DNA of 64,000 nt, taken from NCBI GenBank assembly GCA_002422165.1, contig DITQ01000010.1:56595-120594 (forward strand), read 5' to 3'. The notes beneath the pieces are model-generated. The model was not told the origin of the DNA, did no database searches, and was given only the letters and a program-made list of their open reading frames with translations. Source of the stretch: Candidatus Pacebacteria bacterium UBA6180 (GTDB taxonomy: Bacteria > Patescibacteriota > Microgenomatia > UBA1400 > PJMF01). Both the position numbers and the translations under genes were made by a program. Numbering within the stretch: the first letter of the stretch is position 1; every line of letters begins with the position of its first letter. Positions 329 to 58,289 of the stretch are shown here, in pieces.

Positions 329-494
329 TTTAGCTGAATATCTAGATTACAGTCATACTCAACTAAAAACTTAGCTTCATTTTAACTAACAATCTTTTTT
401 TCGTTCGACGAAGTCGACGTCAACTTGCTATTTTATTTTGTTACCCCTTTTGCCCGCCGACTTCGACGGACTGTAATCTAGATATTCAGCTATT
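329..494. repeat. MITE-like or cruciform element: 24-bp perfect inverted repeats (331-354 and 469-492) with nested inner IRs (about 405-419 and 455-470)
   Basis: tagctgaatatctagattacagtc at 331-354 is the exact reverse complement of gactgtaatctagatattcagcta at 469-492. Inside, cgacgaagtcg and cgacttcg arms also pair. The element lies in the divergent intergenic region between the minus gene starting at 274 and the plus gene starting at 541. Confidence 0.6.
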
Positions 495-8165: not shown

Positions 8166-9509
8166 ATGCAAAAAAACACCAAAACTCAAATTAAAAACCA
8201 AGATCCCATTTTCGACCTAGTCCGGCAAGAAGAGCAGCGCCAACTAGAAATGATTGGCCTGATTCCTTCGGAAAACCAGAGCTCGGAGGCGGTCCGCAGT
8301 GTCTTGTCGTCCTGTCTGTCCAGCAAGTATGCTGAAGGTTATCCCAAGCGCCGCTACTACGAGGGCAATCAAGTCATCGATCAGATCGAAATTCTGGCTC
8401 AAGAGCGAATCAAAAAACTTTTTGATGTAGAGCACGTCAACGTTCAGCCTTATTCTGGTTCGCCCGCTAATTCGGCGGTTGAATTCGCTGTCCTGGAAGC
8501 TGGCGACACCATGATGGGTTTGGCGCTCTCAAGCGGCGGTCACCTAACTCACGGTCATCCCAAGGTGACTTTTTCGGGGCGTTACTTCAACTCGGTTCAG
8601 TATGGTTTGGACAAAAATGCTCGTATCGATTACAAGGCAGTTCGCCAGTTAGCTCTCAAGCACAAGCCTAAATTGATTGTGGCAGGCACGACTGCTTACC
8701 CTTTCGCCTTGGACTTCGCCAAATTTGCGGCCATCGCTGATGAGGTTGGTGCCTATTTGCTGGCTGACATTTCTCACATCACGGGTCTTGTGGCAGCTGG
8801 CGAGCACCAGAGTCCAGTGCCTTACGCTCACGTGGTCATGTCGACCACTCATAAAACTTTCCGTGGGCCGCGTGGAGCGATGATCATGGTCACCAAGCGT
8901 GGTTTGAAGAAAGATCCTGATTTAGCCAATAAGATTGATCAGGCCGTCTTTCCAGCCTTGCAAGGTGGACCGCACAACGAAACGACTGCCGCCATCGCCA
9001 TTGCTGCTGGCGAGGCCCTGCGACCAGAGTTTAAAAAATACGCCAAGCAAATTCGCCGCAACGCCACAGCTTTGGCAGTCGCTTTGCAGAAGGAAGGCCT
9101 AAAACTAGTTGGCGATGGCACTGATAACCATCTCTTGCTGGTTGACTTGACACCTTTTGGCGAAGGTTTTGGCACGCAAGTCGCTTTTGCCATGGATGTG
9201 GCTGGCATCTACGCTAACCGCAACACCATTCCCAATGAGCCTTGCTCACCCTTCTATCCCTCTGGCCTGCGCATCGGCACGCCGCTAGTCACCACCAGAG
9301 GTATGAAAGAGCGAGAGATGACAAAAATTGCTCAATGGATCGCTGGGGTAGTGGACCATATAAAAACCGAACAATTGCCTGCCGACAAAGCACTGCGCCG
9401 CAGCTTTTTGCAGGAATTCAAGAAACGGGTGGTCAAAGATAAGACACTTTTAAAAATTCGTGAGGAAGTAAATGAGATGGCTTTGCAATTTCCGTTATTT
9501 AGTTGGTAA
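8166..9509 (+). CDS. glyA: Serine hydroxymethyltransferase
   Basis: Canonical SHMT motifs are present: LIPSENQSS, KYAEGYPKRRYY, GGHLTHGH and the PLP lysine in TTHKTFRGPRG. Confidence 0.92.
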   Translation: MQKNTKTQIKNQDPIFDLVRQEEQRQLEMIGLIPSENQSSEAVRSVLSSCLSSKYAEGYPKRRYYEGNQVIDQIEILAQERIKKLFDVEHVNVQPYSGSPANSAVEFAVLEAGDTMMGLALSSGGHLTHGHPKVTFSGRYFNSVQYGLDKNARIDYKAVRQLALKHKPKLIVAGTTAYPFALDFAKFAAIADEVGAYLLADISHITGLVAAGEHQSPVPYAHVVMSTTHKTFRGPRGAMIMVTKRGLKKDPDLANKIDQAVFPALQGGPHNETTAAIAIAAGEALRPEFKKYAKQIRRNATALAVALQKEGLKLVGDGTDNHLLLVDLTPFGEGFGTQVAFAMDVAGIYANRNTIPNEPCSPFYPSGLRIGTPLVTTRGMKEREMTKIAQWIAGVVDHIKTEQLPADKALRRSFLQEFKKRVVKDKTLLKIREEVNEMALQFPLFSW

Positions 9510-9525
9510 GGGTAAAATAGACTTC

Positions 9526-10560
9526 ATGACCCTGATTTTTAACGGCGAGCAGCTAGCCAAGCAAAAAGCCCTCAAGCTCAAGCAGAAGGTGCTGTCTTAC
9601 CACGCTAAGGGGATTTATCCCAAGGTGGCCGCCATCTTTTTTCGTGAAGATGCTGCCAGCGCGCTTTATACCACCCTTAAAAAGCAAACCGCCGAAGAGC
9701 TGGGCATTGCCTACCAGGCAAAAGCTTTTTCTTTTACTGACTCCGTGGAAGAAATTCAAGCCTACATTGAAGAACTAAACGCTGACCCAAGCATCACCGG
9801 CATCATCATCCAGAAGCCCTGGACACGAAAATGGCTTGAGGTGGTGCCAGGTGGAGATTTTGCTAAATGGTGGAGCAGTTTGGTCTCGCACATCGCTACC
9901 AGGGAGTCGCACGGTGTCAACAAAGACGTCGACGGTCTGGCGCCAGCCACTTTGGCCGCGATCAAAGCCGGCACTTGGATGCAGCAGAGCATGGTTTTGC
10001 CTGCGACTGCTCGAGCGGTTTTGTCGATTCTCAAAGATTACCGTGCCAAAGTTGATCCTAACTTTTCTTATCTGACCGAAAAAGTGTTGATTATCGGCCA
10101 GTCAGATTTGCTGGGACGACCCTTATATTGGCACATCAAAAACCTAATGCAAAAGGGGGCGAGTGTGCCGGTTGCTTTCGGGGAAGCTTGCCAAATTGCG
10201 GTGGAGGAAGCGCAGACTAGCGATAAAAAGTGCGAAGTCAAATTGGTTGGTAAACAGGGATTAGGAGAGCTCATCGAACAAAAAAAGTCACTAAGAGATT
10301 TTCGCGTCATCATCAGCGCCACCGGTCAGAAAAATTTGCTTCACGGCGATCTCGTCGCTGCTCACAGTATTTTAATCGATGTGGGTGAACCGCAGGGCGA
10401 TATCGACTTTCCTAGTTGTCTCAACAAAGCTGACTTCATCACTCCTGTACCAGGTGGAGTAGGGCCGATGACGGTGATTTCCTTGATGGCCAATGCAGTG
10501 GATTTGCTGAAGAATAGTCTGCTAGAATTAAAAAAGCAAACGGAAGGATCAAATGATTAA
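9526..10560 (+). CDS. folD: Bifunctional methylene-THF dehydrogenase/cyclohydrolase FolD (with an internal insertion)
   Basis: The C-terminal TPVPGGVGPMTV motif matches FolD. The ORF track starts at 9472, but the first ATG matching the FolD N-terminus is at 9526. It is longer than a typical FolD. Confidence 0.7.
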   Translation: MTLIFNGEQLAKQKALKLKQKVLSYHAKGIYPKVAAIFFREDAASALYTTLKKQTAEELGIAYQAKAFSFTDSVEEIQAYIEELNADPSITGIIIQKPWTRKWLEVVPGGDFAKWWSSLVSHIATRESHGVNKDVDGLAPATLAAIKAGTWMQQSMVLPATARAVLSILKDYRAKVDPNFSYLTEKVLIIGQSDLLGRPLYWHIKNLMQKGASVPVAFGEACQIAVEEAQTSDKKCEVKLVGKQGLGELIEQKKSLRDFRVIISATGQKNLLHGDLVAAHSILIDVGEPQGDIDFPSCLNKADFITPVPGGVGPMTVISLMANAVDLLKNSLLELKKQTEGSND

Positions 10561-15529: not shown

Positions 15530-16297
15530 ATGCGTCGTCGAGAAAAATTTGTCATTGTTTCTGTTTTGCTCAGCGCTGGACTTTTGGCTACCCAATATAT
15601 TCCACTTGATTGGCGCTATTTGAGTATTCTAGTCTTGTTTTTGCTATCATATTTGAGTTCAGTTTGGGCCTTGTCAGACGATTTGCAGGCTCACGAGTGG
15701 TTAACCATTGTTCCTTTTCCGGCTCTGTACGCGAGCGCAGTAGCCTTGTTTTATTTTTTATTACCAGAGATTTTTTGGTCGAGATTGATTGTCATTTTGG
15801 TTTTTGGTGTCGGTATGTATGGCTTGTTTTTGACTTCTAACATTTTTTCAGTTGCCAAAGGTCGCACGATTCAGTTACTTTATGCAGCTCATGCAGTTGG
15901 TTTGTTTTTTACCATGTTGACCTCGCTTTTGTTTAGCAATGTCATTTTTTCGCTGCGCCTGCCTTTTTACTACAATGCTTTGCTTCTTTTTGCCAGTCAT
16001 TTTCCACTGGTTCTGATGTCTCTCTGGTCAATTGAATTGCGCCAGAAAATTAGTCGCGAACTTACCCTTTATTCTCTGGTTTTTAGTTTAATTTTGGCTG
16101 AGTTGGGAATTTTATTTTCTTTCTTGCCTTTGCAAATTTGGAGTCAGGCTCTTTTTGTCATGTCTTTTTTGTATTTAGGTCTTTCTATCCTTCAAAATCT
16201 CTTCAAAGGTAGGTTATTTCGCAATACCATCAATGAATACAATTTAGTTGCTTTCTTAATGTTGTTTTTGTTTATCATTTTGTTTCCTTCTAAATAA
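15530..16297 (+). CDS. Polytopic membrane protein (hypothetical)
   Basis: The product is 255 aa with at least seven hydrophobic helices. Confidence 0.45.
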   Translation: MRRREKFVIVSVLLSAGLLATQYIPLDWRYLSILVLFLLSYLSSVWALSDDLQAHEWLTIVPFPALYASAVALFYFLLPEIFWSRLIVILVFGVGMYGLFLTSNIFSVAKGRTIQLLYAAHAVGLFFTMLTSLLFSNVIFSLRLPFYYNALLLFASHFPLVLMSLWSIELRQKISRELTLYSLVFSLILAELGILFSFLPLQIWSQALFVMSFLYLGLSILQNLFKGRLFRNTINEYNLVAFLMLFLFIILFPSK

Positions 16298-16326
16298 AAA
16301 AGATTGATACATCAATCTTTTTTATT
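16297..16326 (+). terminator. Rho-independent terminator
   Basis: The stem agattga(t) / (a)tcaatct with a 3-nt loop is flanked by an A-run and TTTTTT. Confidence 0.7.
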
Positions 16327-56266: not shown

Positions 56267-57316
56267 CTAAAATTGCTCCAAAAATTCTAAATTACCGCTG
56301 TAAAACAAGCGAATGTCATCGATGTTTAGACCTTCCTTGAGGGTGTAGGTGCGTTCGACTCCCCAACCGAAGGCGAAACCGGTGTAAATCTCTGGGTCAA
56401 TGCCACCAGCCTTGAGGACATTGGGGTGGACCATGCCGGCACCGCCAACTTCGTGCCAGCCAGATTTACAAAAACGACAATTTTCTTTGCCGCGCGAACC
56501 AGTGCCGCGGCAAATGTGGCAACTGAAGTCAACTTCGAAAGAAGGTTCGGTAAATTTGAAGTGAAAGGGGCGGATGCGGCTTTTGGTGCCTTTGCCATAA
56601 AACTGCTCGGCGAAATAATCGAGCGTACCCTTGAGGTGCTGGATATTGATGCCCTGATCGACCACCAAACCTTCGAACTGGTGAAACATCTGGGTGTGGG
56701 TGGCGTCGCTTTGGCGACGGTAAGTGCGAGCGATGTTGATCATGCGAATGGGCGGTTTGGACTTGAGGCGCTCCATCTCACGCACCTGTCCATTGGAGGT
56801 GTGGGTGGTGAGGACGACTTTGCCCATTTTCTGGTCAGCGGGAGTGTCGACGAAGAAAGTCTCCCACTCGTCGCGTGCGGGGTGGTTTTTAGGCATATTG
56901 AGGGCTTCGAAGACGTAATAATCGAAGTCAACTTCTGGATATCTGACTCGATTGAAGCCAATTTTTTCGAAAATCTGACTAATTTCTTCGATGGCTTGGG
57001 AAATTGGGTGTAGGTGACCTACTTTTTGCCGTTCTCCAGGCAGGCTGAGATCGAGATTGCTTCCTTGGCTTTTACCCTGCTGCTGCAGATTTTGCAGGTA
57101 GCTCTCGATTTTACCCTTAAGTGAATTGAGTTCTTGACCAAAAACTTTTTTTTGATCGTTAGATAAGTTTTTGATTTCAGCTCCAAGCTGTTTGAACAAG
57201 CCGTTTTTACCCAGATACTTGATGCGCAGGTCCTCTACTTGCGCTGGTTTTTCAGCGACAAGTTTTTGCCAGAGGGCTTGGCAAAGTTGGACTGGGTCGG
57301 CTTGAGTCATGATCAT
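56267..57316 (-). CDS. pheS: Phenylalanine--tRNA ligase alpha subunit
   Basis: Class II motifs FNRVRYPEVDFDYYVFEALNMPKNHPARDEWETFF and GFAFGWGVER are present. Confidence 0.9.
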   Translation of the reverse strand: MIMTQADPVQLCQALWQKLVAEKPAQVEDLRIKYLGKNGLFKQLGAEIKNLSNDQKKVFGQELNSLKGKIESYLQNLQQQGKSQGSNLDLSLPGERQKVGHLHPISQAIEEISQIFEKIGFNRVRYPEVDFDYYVFEALNMPKNHPARDEWETFFVDTPADQKMGKVVLTTHTSNGQVREMERLKSKPPIRMINIARTYRRQSDATHTQMFHQFEGLVVDQGINIQHLKGTLDYFAEQFYGKGTKSRIRPFHFKFTEPSFEVDFSCHICRGTGSRGKENCRFCKSGWHEVGGAGMVHPNVLKAGGIDPEIYTGFAFGWGVERTYTLKEGLNIDDIRLFYSGNLEFLEQF

Positions 57317-57553
57317 TTTATATTCTAAAAATTTACCTTTAGTTTTAAAACACAGTTTCGTTCTTTAATTCAGTCCATTGAAGGCGCTGAGCTGCAGTGT
57401 AAACGAATTGCAATGCTCTTAGACAGCGCCTTCATTGAGTAAGAAGAAGATTGTTGATTTCAATGAAGCAAGCATTTTCGTCGCACGTGACTGGATTAAA
57501 GAACGAAACTGTGTTTGTATTATAACGCTAGATCTTAGCCAGGCCAAGCTCTT
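57317..57553 (-). promoter_or_regulatory. pheST promoter (TTGGCC-N17-TATAAT, minus strand) plus structured leader with nested or alternative hairpins and an 18-codon leader ORF
   Basis: The minus-sense sequence reads ...agagcTTGGCCtggctaagatctagcgtTATAATacaaacacag.... The 22-bp outer arms at 57348-57369 and 57495-57516 pair exactly. Inner hairpins tgaaggcgctg/cagcgccttca and cttcattga/tcaatgaag are mutually exclusive. The leader ORF at 57419-57475 encodes MLASLKSTIFFLLNEGAV. Confidence 0.5.
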
Positions 57554-57710
57554 TTAGGTAAGCTAACAAGTATAATTCTGGAGAATTTGATTGAAACTGA
57601 GGGTGTTTTTGCATAATTTGTCCTAAACTCTTAGCCTTGGAGGCTAAGACCTGATAGGCTTTGGAAGCCGAATTTTTTTCTGAGTCGACAAAATGCGTGT
57701 TGTCTGGCAT
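57528..57710 (-). CDS. Hypothetical 60-aa ORF between the rplT terminator and the pheST promoter (possibly spurious)
   Basis: No recognisable motif is present. Its 3' end overlaps the predicted pheST -35 region. Confidence 0.2.
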   Translation of the reverse strand: MPDNTHFVDSEKNSASKAYQVLASKAKSLGQIMQKHPQFQSNSPELYLLAYLKELGLAKI

Positions 57711-57785: not shown

Positions 57786-57820
57786 AAAAACCCCGCTTGG
57801 TGAAGCGGGGTTTTGGTTTT
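57786..57820. terminator. Bidirectional rho-independent terminator downstream of rplT
   Basis: The 8-bp GC-rich stem ccccgctt / aagcgggg with loop ggtg has an A-run on one side and a T-run on the other. Confidence 0.8.
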
Positions 57821-57935
57821 ACTTTAACTAATTTATGTACCAATTACCCCACTCTTCCCTTCATCAAGAAGCTTTGAAAAGAAATAATGGTGTGTTGGCG
57901 ACAAGCTTTGAACATTGAATTTATTATTTATACAC

Positions 57936-58289
57936 TTATTTTTGGGTTTTGGCAACAATTTCCTTAAAAGTGTCAAAATCTTTGACGGCGATCTCAGAAA
58001 GCATCTTGCGGTTGAGTTCAATCTTGGCAGTTTTGAGAGCCTTGATAAATCTGGAATAGTTGAGACTCTCACCAATTGATTTGACAGCGGCGGTGATGCG
58101 GACGATCCACAAGCGACGAATATCTCTTTTGCGCAATTTGCGACCAATGTAGGCGTATTGGCCAGCGTGAAGCAGGGCTTCATGAGCGCGTTTGTAGAGG
58201 CGGTTATTGGTGCCACGAAAACCCTTGGTGAGTTTCAGGACTTTTTTGTGGCGTTTGTGACGAACAACGCTAGTTTTGGTTCTGGACAT
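57936..58289 (-). CDS. rplT: 50S ribosomal protein L20
   Basis: MSRTKTSVVRHKRHKKVLKLTKGFRG is the canonical L20 N-terminus. Confidence 0.93.
   Translation of the reverse strand: MSRTKTSVVRHKRHKKVLKLTKGFRGTNNRLYKRAHEALLHAGQYAYIGRKLRKRDIRRLWIVRITAAVKSIGESLNYSRFIKALKTAKIELNRKMLSEIAVKDFDTFKEIVAKTQK

Follow-up and report, generated by a model that had tools for sequence, protein, structure and literature searches.

Criteria for recognizing miniature inverted-repeat transposable elements (MITEs) in bacteria have been set out in PMC2229807. The Correia (NEMIS) elements of Neisseria are ~105–155 bp long, AT-rich and non-coding, with terminal inverted repeats of ~24 bp, and lie near gene starts (PMC2229807). 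Their transcripts form long hairpins, which have been proposed to be substrates for RNase III and thereby to affect neighboring mRNAs (PMC2229807). RPE, REP/REPIN and ERIC/YPAL sequences are hairpin-forming selfish palindromes that occupy orthologous sites, undergo decay and may lack TA ends (PMC2229807). We have analyzed a palindromic element, termed e1, at positions 331–492 of a 64,000-nucleotide stretch from Candidatus Pacebacteria bacterium UBA6180 (assembly GCA_002422165.1, contig DITQ01000010.1, positions 56,595 to 120,594, forward strand). We refer to the whole stretch as the window, and to loci in other genomes by handles such as L005. By its protein homologs the window belongs to the Patescibacteria, close to the Woese-/Pacebacteria. 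An earlier note, made from the letters of the window, had proposed that e1 might be a MITE. The interpretation that we favor is that e1 is a copy of an old, low-copy family of palindromic insertion elements that are defined by their structure, and we place its probability at about one half.

The family resembles the Correia elements in its size, repeat length, AT-richness and position at gene starts, and in the long hairpins that its transcripts would form. Yet Correia elements occur in hundreds of similar copies, with termini that are conserved and a duplicated TA, whereas this family has termini specific to each copy, no duplication, and a small number of copies that are 56–76% identical and contain a conserved internal three-way junction. 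With RPE, REP/REPIN and ERIC/YPAL it shares the character of palindromic repeats in often reduced bacterial genomes, but in those repeats the sequence is conserved over the whole element including the arms. RPEs are also found inserted within genes, and REPINs occur in large numbers in association with a RAYT gene. The many similar copies and conserved REP sequence by which REP/REPIN elements are recognized are not found here; copy number is low, the copies are divergent and the arms are unconserved. To our knowledge none of these repeats has been described with a perfect stem of free sequence around a covarying core.

The arms of e1 lie at 331–354 (TAGCTGAATATCTAGATTACAGTC) and 469–492, and form the closing stem that we term P1. 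They are exact reverse complements over 24 of 24 nucleotides (100%) with a spacing of 114 nt, as the earlier note had stated. By our own arithmetic the expected number of perfect 24-nt inverted repeats within 400 nt is ~1e-7 per 64 kb, and the repeat is indeed far beyond chance. Allowing three or fewer mismatches, the arm sequence does not occur again within the window, and it was found in none of 100 dinucleotide shuffles. The nested inverted repeat that had been noticed inside the element is also there, extending over 17 nt at 403–419/455–471 with 82% complementarity. The element occupies most of the 276–540 gap between two divergent genes, again as described. On the left is a Glucodextran_B-like gene with its start codon at 275, and on the right is an MBL-fold gene (541–1197) followed by dnaB. 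The suggestion that e1 would form a long-stem structure if transcribed is supported; compared with shuffled sequences its folding gives z = −7.7 for the plus strand and z = −10.4 for the minus strand.

The window contains a second member of the family. This element, e2, lies at 57348–57516 between the stop codon of orf60, with its TATAAT box, and pheS. Its arms (57348–57375 and 57489–57516) were the sole other long inverted-repeat pair in a window-wide scan, with 27 of 28 positions paired and 113 nt between them. The earlier note had taken the element in the pheST leader to be unrelated to e1 in sequence, and this was mistaken. The reverse complement of e2 aligns collinearly with 331–492, with a core identity of ~59%. 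The two share inner arm ends CAGTC...GACTG and conserved blocks such as GCTTCATT..AACAATCTT. The inner hairpin of e2 (57376–57389/57424–57437) is in the same place as that of e1; four to five of the differences are compensatory, and an A-A mismatch is conserved. One covariance model scores both elements at 144–149 bits (149.4 bits for e2). The pyrimidine-rich strand, which we call Y, is the plus strand of e1 and the minus strand of e2, and the purine-rich strand is correspondingly minus in e1 and plus in e2. A third copy, e3, is found in the relative L005 between glyA and folD, and has a perfect 22-bp stem.

Pattern scans and the covariance model together gave ~25 members, in genomes of Patescibacteria (the candidate phyla radiation, CPR) and Dependentiae (TM6), and the family has so far been seen only in these groups. 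When one genome per species was scanned with an exact pattern, 14 loci were obtained. Of these, 11 are true members, and they come from Microgenomates, Pacebacteria, a Parcubacteria metagenome-assembled genome (four copies), the TM6 genome CP011212 and other genomes. A scan of metagenome contigs with a different pattern returned 11 members, one of which duplicates the TM6 copy from the genome scan. The covariance model, R1, was built from 23 members and recovers all of them at 125–170 bits. It added two copies that lie outside the search patterns, at L007:2419-2584 and in L038/L039. The elements are ~155–175 bp long; measured lengths are 162–175 bp, with a GC content of 0.26–0.40. There are few copies per genome (2 in 74 kb here, and 4 or more in one metagenome-assembled genome), and these are divergent. 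No open reading frame (ORF) is conserved across the family on either strand, and insertions and deletions are not multiples of three, which excludes a small protein or type I toxin.

A search of the window element and seven other members against the 4227 models of Rfam gave no match at the gathering score on either strand, and nothing consistent at the permissive thresholds of E <= 1-10 for the window element and E <= 1 for the seven others. Viral contigs, phage records and plasmids contained no family matches, and literature searches for a palindromic element or RNA motif of CPR or TM6 found no description. The family is uncatalogued. Two members have unusual settings. L011 (CAZIBP010000006.1) is labeled 'uncultured Pseudomonadales'; it is very AT-rich, carries a typical member, and may be a mis-binned CPR or TM6 contig. 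The member at L010:5745-5830 adjoins a tRNA gene, its arm ending a few nucleotides from the tRNA.

Every member has a core of ~113 nt closed by an outer P1 stem of 20–30 bp. P1 is Watson–Crick paired at 540 of 586 positions (92%), being perfect in seven copies and having one mismatch in seven. In an ungapped count of the arms the mismatches are 6 G-T, 11 A-C and 29 others, so that G-T is not enriched over A-C. Mean identity between copies is 46% in the arms and 67% in the core, and a proximal motif, ACTTTAAAnnCAGTC, recurs in many copies. P1 has remained almost purely Watson–Crick despite the turnover of its sequence, which resembles a constraint at the level of DNA more than it does a typical RNA helix.

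As a single strand, the core folds into a three-way junction of P1 and two hairpins, P2 and P3. In e1 it comprises the 114 nt at 355–468 with Y on the plus strand, as placed by alignments A4/A5 and model R1 (143.9 bits). P3 has the form GAAGnnGCTG/CAGCnnCTTC with a variable tip; in e1 it corresponds to the nested repeat, with 406–419 paired to 455–468 and a loop at 420–454. P2 is an irregular helix. At its base a purine-pyrimidine dinucleotide pairs with another 46 nt away, and this pair is Watson–Crick in all 24 sequences, in the combinations GT/AC, GC/GC, AT/AT and AC/GT. In e1 it is formed by AC at 357–358, at the junction, with GT at 403–404.

The fold is supported by covariation. In alignment A5, 86.3% of cells pair compared with 72.6% in shuffles (equaled in none of 500), the covariation score is 0.395 against 0.166 for shuffles, and control alignments that were slid along the sequence are only 37–45% paired. 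Double changes occur at 25 of 25 P1 pairs, and at 34 of 49 pairs overall. At the orthologous locus L038 the sequence of P3 has been completely replaced (AAAAGCACTG/CAGTGCTTTT), and the pairing is fully compensated. This is a structured nucleic-acid family, backed by compensatory changes that go beyond the controls.

Such covariation could be expected of a gene for a structured non-coding or processed RNA. The core, probably that of the purine-rich strand, would then be functional, for example as a scaffold for protein binding, P1 would be a processing stem of the RNase III type that frees the core from any transcript running through it, and the copies would be paralogous genes. All three helices covary strongly, the junction dinucleotide pair being kept in 24 of 24, and the fold is preserved by compensatory change at orthologous loci. 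The purine-rich strand is the more stable in 21 of 23 members, and it contains a near-invariant G-U pair (23 of 24), an alternation of G-C and G-U at one P2 pair, and tandem G-A pairs in P2 and P3. The core consensus is 86% conserved across phyla, and a P1 of 20–30 bp would suit a two-turn double-stranded RNA substrate. The 3′ arm of the purine-rich strand stops 0–11 nt short of a start codon (obg, rluB-like and others) in ~10 of 24 copies, the nearest start codon on the opposite side of the element being 16–48 nt away, and e1 has a promoter-like site upstream on its purine-rich strand.

Other properties speak against an RNA gene. The comparison of G-U with A-C, which should distinguish the strands, is not significant (22 vs 14 in P2 and P3, and 24 vs 20 in P1), and an almost purely Watson–Crick P1 is unusual among RNA stems. 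There is no consistent promoter or terminator and no terminator-like tail, and the promoter-like site of e2 is upstream of the opposite, pyrimidine-rich strand. Orientation to the neighboring genes is random, and is flipped between orthologs. A leader RNA or riboswitch has a fixed orientation upstream of functionally related genes, but the neighbors here are unrelated to one another (obg, rluB-like, pheS, folD and MBL genes) and are met in either sense. The clean absence or decay of the element in close relatives indicates that it is dispensable. Rfam contains small RNAs and riboswitches of similar size that likewise have a covarying multi-helix fold, but no model matches. On balance we think it rather unlikely that the element is an RNA gene, although a processed RNA under purifying selection is the chief alternative to an insertion element and would account for the strand asymmetry, the cross-phylum conservation and the upkeep of the fold in place.

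A number of known motifs were considered for the core. The hairpin-ribozyme-like loop, the hammerhead, the k-turn, attC and the retron non-coding RNA do not seem to fit the conserved positions, and there is no reverse transcriptase nearby that would go with a retron. On the pyrimidine-rich strand the inner-hairpin region (406–419/455–468 of the window, family consensus) reads GGTGAAGTCG ... ATCAGCTCCTTCA, which resembles the 3′ end of 16S rRNA, GGTGAAGTCGTAACAAGG ... GATCACCTCCTTA (compare GGTGAAGTCG ... ATCAnCTCCTT in P3). The complementary strand contains a long Shine-Dalgarno-like AAGGAGCTGAT. The likeness is probably a coincidence because GGAG/CTCC is replaced in ~1/3 of members.

The history of individual sites was followed by comparing orthologous loci. 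The gap between glyA and folD is 186 nt with the element in L005, and a clean 12–16 nt in both the window and the more distant L006. (The mechanically called folD ORF at 9472–10560 overlaps glyA; comparison with L005 and L006 places the real start at ATG 9527, with a 16-nt spacer.) Upstream of the MBL-fold gene, e1 is identical in four assemblies of one species (the window and L001–L003). At this site L038/L039 (83% MBL identity) have an intact element whose arms differ completely from those of e1, and L005 (81%) has a decayed one. L036 (92%) retains only a 14-nt remnant of the core, and L004 (89%) a 5′ remnant. There is no remnant in L037 (90%), and in the P0004 group (86%) the gap is just 119 nt. 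From this distribution the element is therefore ancestral at the site, and has been lost repeatedly.

The genes around e2 are ordered infC-rpmI-rplT-orf60-[e2]-pheS-pheT. The element is cleanly absent from L042 (PheS 88%), L043 (85%) and L044/L045 (84%), where the 20–29 nt of the gap are made up of a stop codon, a GTTATAATA box and a brief leader. Nothing in these empty sites corresponds to the arms of e2, which therefore belong to the inserted unit. Among related genomes, a given intergenic site holds the whole unit, arms and core together, or lacks it cleanly. Insertion of a core into a palindrome that was already there can be rejected, since the empty glyA-folD and orf60-pheS sites hold no palindrome and the window has no reservoir of long empty palindromes. 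Nor is there support for the arms of e2 being inverted copies of the host flank, as they have no counterpart in the empty sites; the hints of such copying elsewhere are weak, comprising 5 nt at e3 and a similarity of e1 to L037.

A possible rearrangement of another kind was seen at L004:1700-1941. Here a perfect 21-bp palindrome (1762–1805), which R1 picks up and which resembles a terminator hairpin, comes after a tRNA gene, and ~120 nt beyond the palindrome there is a second copy of the tRNA 3′ end (GATTCCCCTTCGGTCCA). The locus resembles an insertion at or in a tRNA gene, either an integrated element or an intron-related rearrangement.

The flanks of e1 and e2 contain promoter-like sequences. 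A consensus scan alone identified a candidate site on the minus strand at 509–536 (TTCAGA, 16 nt, TAAAAT), just upstream of e1; transcription from it would run toward the leftward gene and copy out the purine-rich strand of e1. The same scan placed a putative promoter of the leftward gene (TTGACT, 17 nt, TAAGAT) at 295–323 on the minus strand, downstream of e1; TGTGTATAAT at 306–315 overlaps this site and is conserved in orthologous regions. On the plus strand, TGTTACACT at 523–531 is likely to be the extended −10 of the MBL-fold gene, as read from the sequence and from orthologous intergenic regions. It lies outside e1, and orthologs have kept it whether or not they contain the element. At e2 the ancestral TATAAT box is just upstream on the strand of pheS, and another box, TAGAAT, follows between e2 and pheS. 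Because there are promoter-like sites upstream of each element and again before the downstream gene, e1 and e2 are both probably transcribed toward the next gene, in opposite orientations of the core. Within the core or arms, inspection by eye and consensus scans gave no convincing sigma-70-type match.

It is here that a further suggestion of the earlier note can be assessed, namely that e1 is a cruciform operator specific to this locus, controlling divergent promoters for the leftward gene and the MBL/dnaB operon. Its position between divergent promoter-like sites, and its identity in the four assemblies of the species, are in favor of an operator. However, the closest relatives (86–92% MBL identity) have no element here and have kept both promoters, and the proposal is refuted by the ~25 family members at unrelated loci and in different phyla. 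We regard it as almost certainly wrong.

The flanks also bear on the proposal that e1 is a classical MITE, which would have arisen by deletion from an insertion sequence and be mobilized by a DDE transposase that binds the terminal repeats and generates a target-site duplication of fixed length. Part of this holds. The elements are small, AT-rich, non-coding, intergenic and multi-copy, they have long terminal inverted repeats, and filled and empty sites distinguish related genomes. The rest does not. The earlier note had recommended a search for flanking direct repeats, but neither adjacent nor displaced repeats exceed chance; adjacent repeats equal a cross-paired control and are lacking from 16 of 24 copies, and displaced repeats occur only at L009/L033 (12–13 nt) and L015. 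None of the 24 copies has TA at both ends. The outer termini are unrelated between copies of one genome, so there are no conserved terminal repeats, and paralogous cores are only 56–76% identical, so that there has been no recent burst. No related transposase was seen, and the viral, phage and plasmid collections gave no hits. The earlier note held that a unique occurrence, with no relatives and no duplication, would speak against a mobile MITE. Relatives do exist, yet they lack duplications. A classical MITE, contradicted on three defining features, is thus very improbable. The family is best filed among the bacterial palindromic intergenic repeats, the MITE idea having been right about a repeated, insertable palindrome and wrong about the mechanism.

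At L009:4245-4480 and in L033 a direct repeat of 12–13 nt, TTCTAGTGTAAAA, from a promoter −10 region, stands immediately before the element and again 26 nt after it. This is the only convincing flanking duplication in the family. A target-site duplication displaced by a 3′ tail was considered, and is not a general feature.

All copies are intergenic and abut start or stop codons. Their orientation with respect to the neighboring genes is ~50:50, with ~9 co-directional on one strand, ~9 on the other, 4–6 in divergent gaps and 1 in a convergent gap. One locus bears directly on a change of orientation. In L030 (PheS 87% identical to that of the window) the pheS-proximal arm is homologous to that of e2, but the core matches e2 only if it is reverse-complemented (87 vs 42 identities), and the strand calls of R1 agree. 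The closest relative of L030 among the compared loci is the empty L042 (91%), and the L030 contig starts exactly at the junction of arm and core. Either the core has been inverted in place between the arms, or an element has been re-inserted in the opposite sense.

Invertons of the fimS type and those of Bacteroides likewise have a segment flanked by inverted repeats upstream of genes, and occur in both orientations at one locus. If the present element were an inverton, its arms would be the sites at which a recombinase acts, turning over the 113-nt core and so altering how the adjacent gene is expressed, and the arms would stay identical through repeated crossing-over. A short segment between perfect inverted repeats at promoters or start codons, the inversion of the core relative to pheS between the window species and L030 with the arm kept in place, and the break of the L030 contig at exactly the arm/core junction would be readily explained. 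So would the even orientation across the family, and the concerted evolution of arms with no G-U signature. However, known invertons have their own promoter, a dedicated recombinase and heterogeneity within the population. Among the assemblies of the window species we found no heterogeneity of orientation, and there is a single orientation in three to four independent assemblies for e1 (window, L001–L003) and e2 (window, L040, L041). Five ortholog pairs have kept their orientation (e1/L038, L021/L031, L012/L029, L009/L033 and L007/L017). There is no convincing outward promoter in the core, and no recombinase gene was noted beside the copies, whose neighbors were not systematically scanned. Since the arms differ between copies, a single enzyme would read the inner ~15 bp only. 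Moreover, housekeeping or essential neighbors such as pheS, obg, folD and the dnaB operon are poor candidates for phase variation. An inverton therefore seems quite improbable. We also considered the covarying dinucleotides as crossover sites for a serine recombinase and rejected this, since the half-sites on either side are not inverted copies of one another.

The arms of orthologous copies have changed together. In the pairs L021/L031, L012/L029, L009/L033 and e1/L038 there are many differences in the arms, and a change in one arm has its match in the other. Among these pairs one single-nucleotide insertion or deletion in an arm is mirrored in the other. Copying from arm to arm would account for the mirrored indel and the missing G-U excess more simply than independent compensatory mutations do.

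We return to the interpretation that e1 belongs to an old family of structure-defined palindromic insertion elements. It draws on five observations: the folded core, a P1 that is complementary yet free in sequence, filled and empty sites, decay, and the opposite orientation of the core at one locus. The folded form, as a cruciform or as single-stranded DNA during replication or repair, may be the unit that is recognized and maintained. Template switching at the hairpin, or recombination between the arms, could keep these complementary, and recombination could also flip the core. Such processes would explain the mirrored substitutions, the mirrored indel and the absence of a G-U excess. Clean loss might occur by slippage promoted by the hairpin. 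Read-through from neighboring promoters would generate the hairpin as RNA. Transcribed in either direction, this would contain a perfect duplex of two turns, a potential substrate for an enzyme of the RNase III type as for the Correia elements of Neisseria, and its cleavage could uncouple the flanking transcripts. Uncoupling fits the presence of a second promoter-like box between the element and the downstream gene.

There are several points that weigh against this interpretation. We found no mobilizing enzyme, no recent near-identical copies and no target-site duplication, so that transposition is inferred at most. The element could have been gained by homologous recombination of the flanks after DNA uptake, and L030 may represent a re-insertion in the opposite sense and not an inversion in place. 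The better folding of the purine-rich strand in 21 of 23 members, together with its retained G-U pair and tandem G-A pairs, suggests that one single strand is functional, and random orientation is compatible with this if the element is an independent RNA gene. The core of a TM6 copy is 86% identical to that of a Pacebacteria copy, higher than the 56–76% within a genome. This identity across phyla, and the maintenance of the fold in situ between e1 and L038, fit purifying selection on an RNA or DNA that is useful to the host at least as well as selfish DNA. In addition, members were collected with two sequence patterns, and the blocks matched by these are bound to look conserved; since several members are mutual orthologs, the counts are not independent.

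Two other systems involve folded DNA. The substrate of integron recombination at attC is a folded single strand, and the sequence is highly variable between copies. However, attC sites keep their outer R′ and R″ boxes and vary in the center, the reverse of what we observe, and they occur in cassette arrays beside an integrase; there are no such boxes or arrays at the family members. The T-shaped terminal hairpins of parvoviruses such as adeno-associated virus (AAV) have a long perfect stem closing two small hairpins in a three-way junction, and their arms are kept perfect by hairpin-templated copying with flip and flop orientations. These are telomeres of linear single-stranded viral DNA with Rep sites, whereas the present elements are chromosomal and interstitial, and we use the comparison as an analogy only.

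Some further features of the window were noted. In the pheS region, orf60 (57528–57710, minus strand) is a conserved 60-amino-acid ORF that lies between rplT and pheS in all the relatives. A 127-amino-acid ORF at 57833–58216 (minus strand) has no Pfam hit; related loci have rplT (L20) in the corresponding position. There is a bidirectional terminator-like hairpin at 57787–57814. The listed start of the pheS ORF is at 57316 (ATGATCATG...), but aligned orthologs point to the second ATG (57310) as the true start. At 16293–16326, at the end of the gene at 15530–16297, there is a perfect 16-bp AT-rich palindrome with a 2-nt spacer; it resembles a terminator and is unrelated to the family.

A more ambitious proposal may be made, which we consider distinctly unlikely. 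The family would be a new class of self-correcting, structure-defined elements of CPR and TM6 bacteria, in which the core is a processed functional RNA or the recognition module of an enzyme as yet unknown. Recombination between the arms would maintain their perfect complementarity and make the core reversible, and the elements would act as portable, invertible or processing cassettes at housekeeping promoters that are exchanged across phyla.

The elements are located at promoters of essential genes, namely those of pheS, obg, folD and the dnaB operon. They also break assemblies, and could mislead the prediction of promoters and operons. Model R1 and alignments A4/A5 provide a direct handle for annotating them. 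The genomes of CPR and TM6 bacteria are tiny and leave very little space between genes, and the persistence of a folded, non-coding 160-bp repeat across phyla requires an explanation. If the core is an RNA, it would be a new conserved class in organisms for which almost no non-coding RNAs are known. If it is the folded DNA that acts, the family would be a natural case of concerted evolution and inversion in a palindrome, and may reveal a structure-specific system of mobilization.

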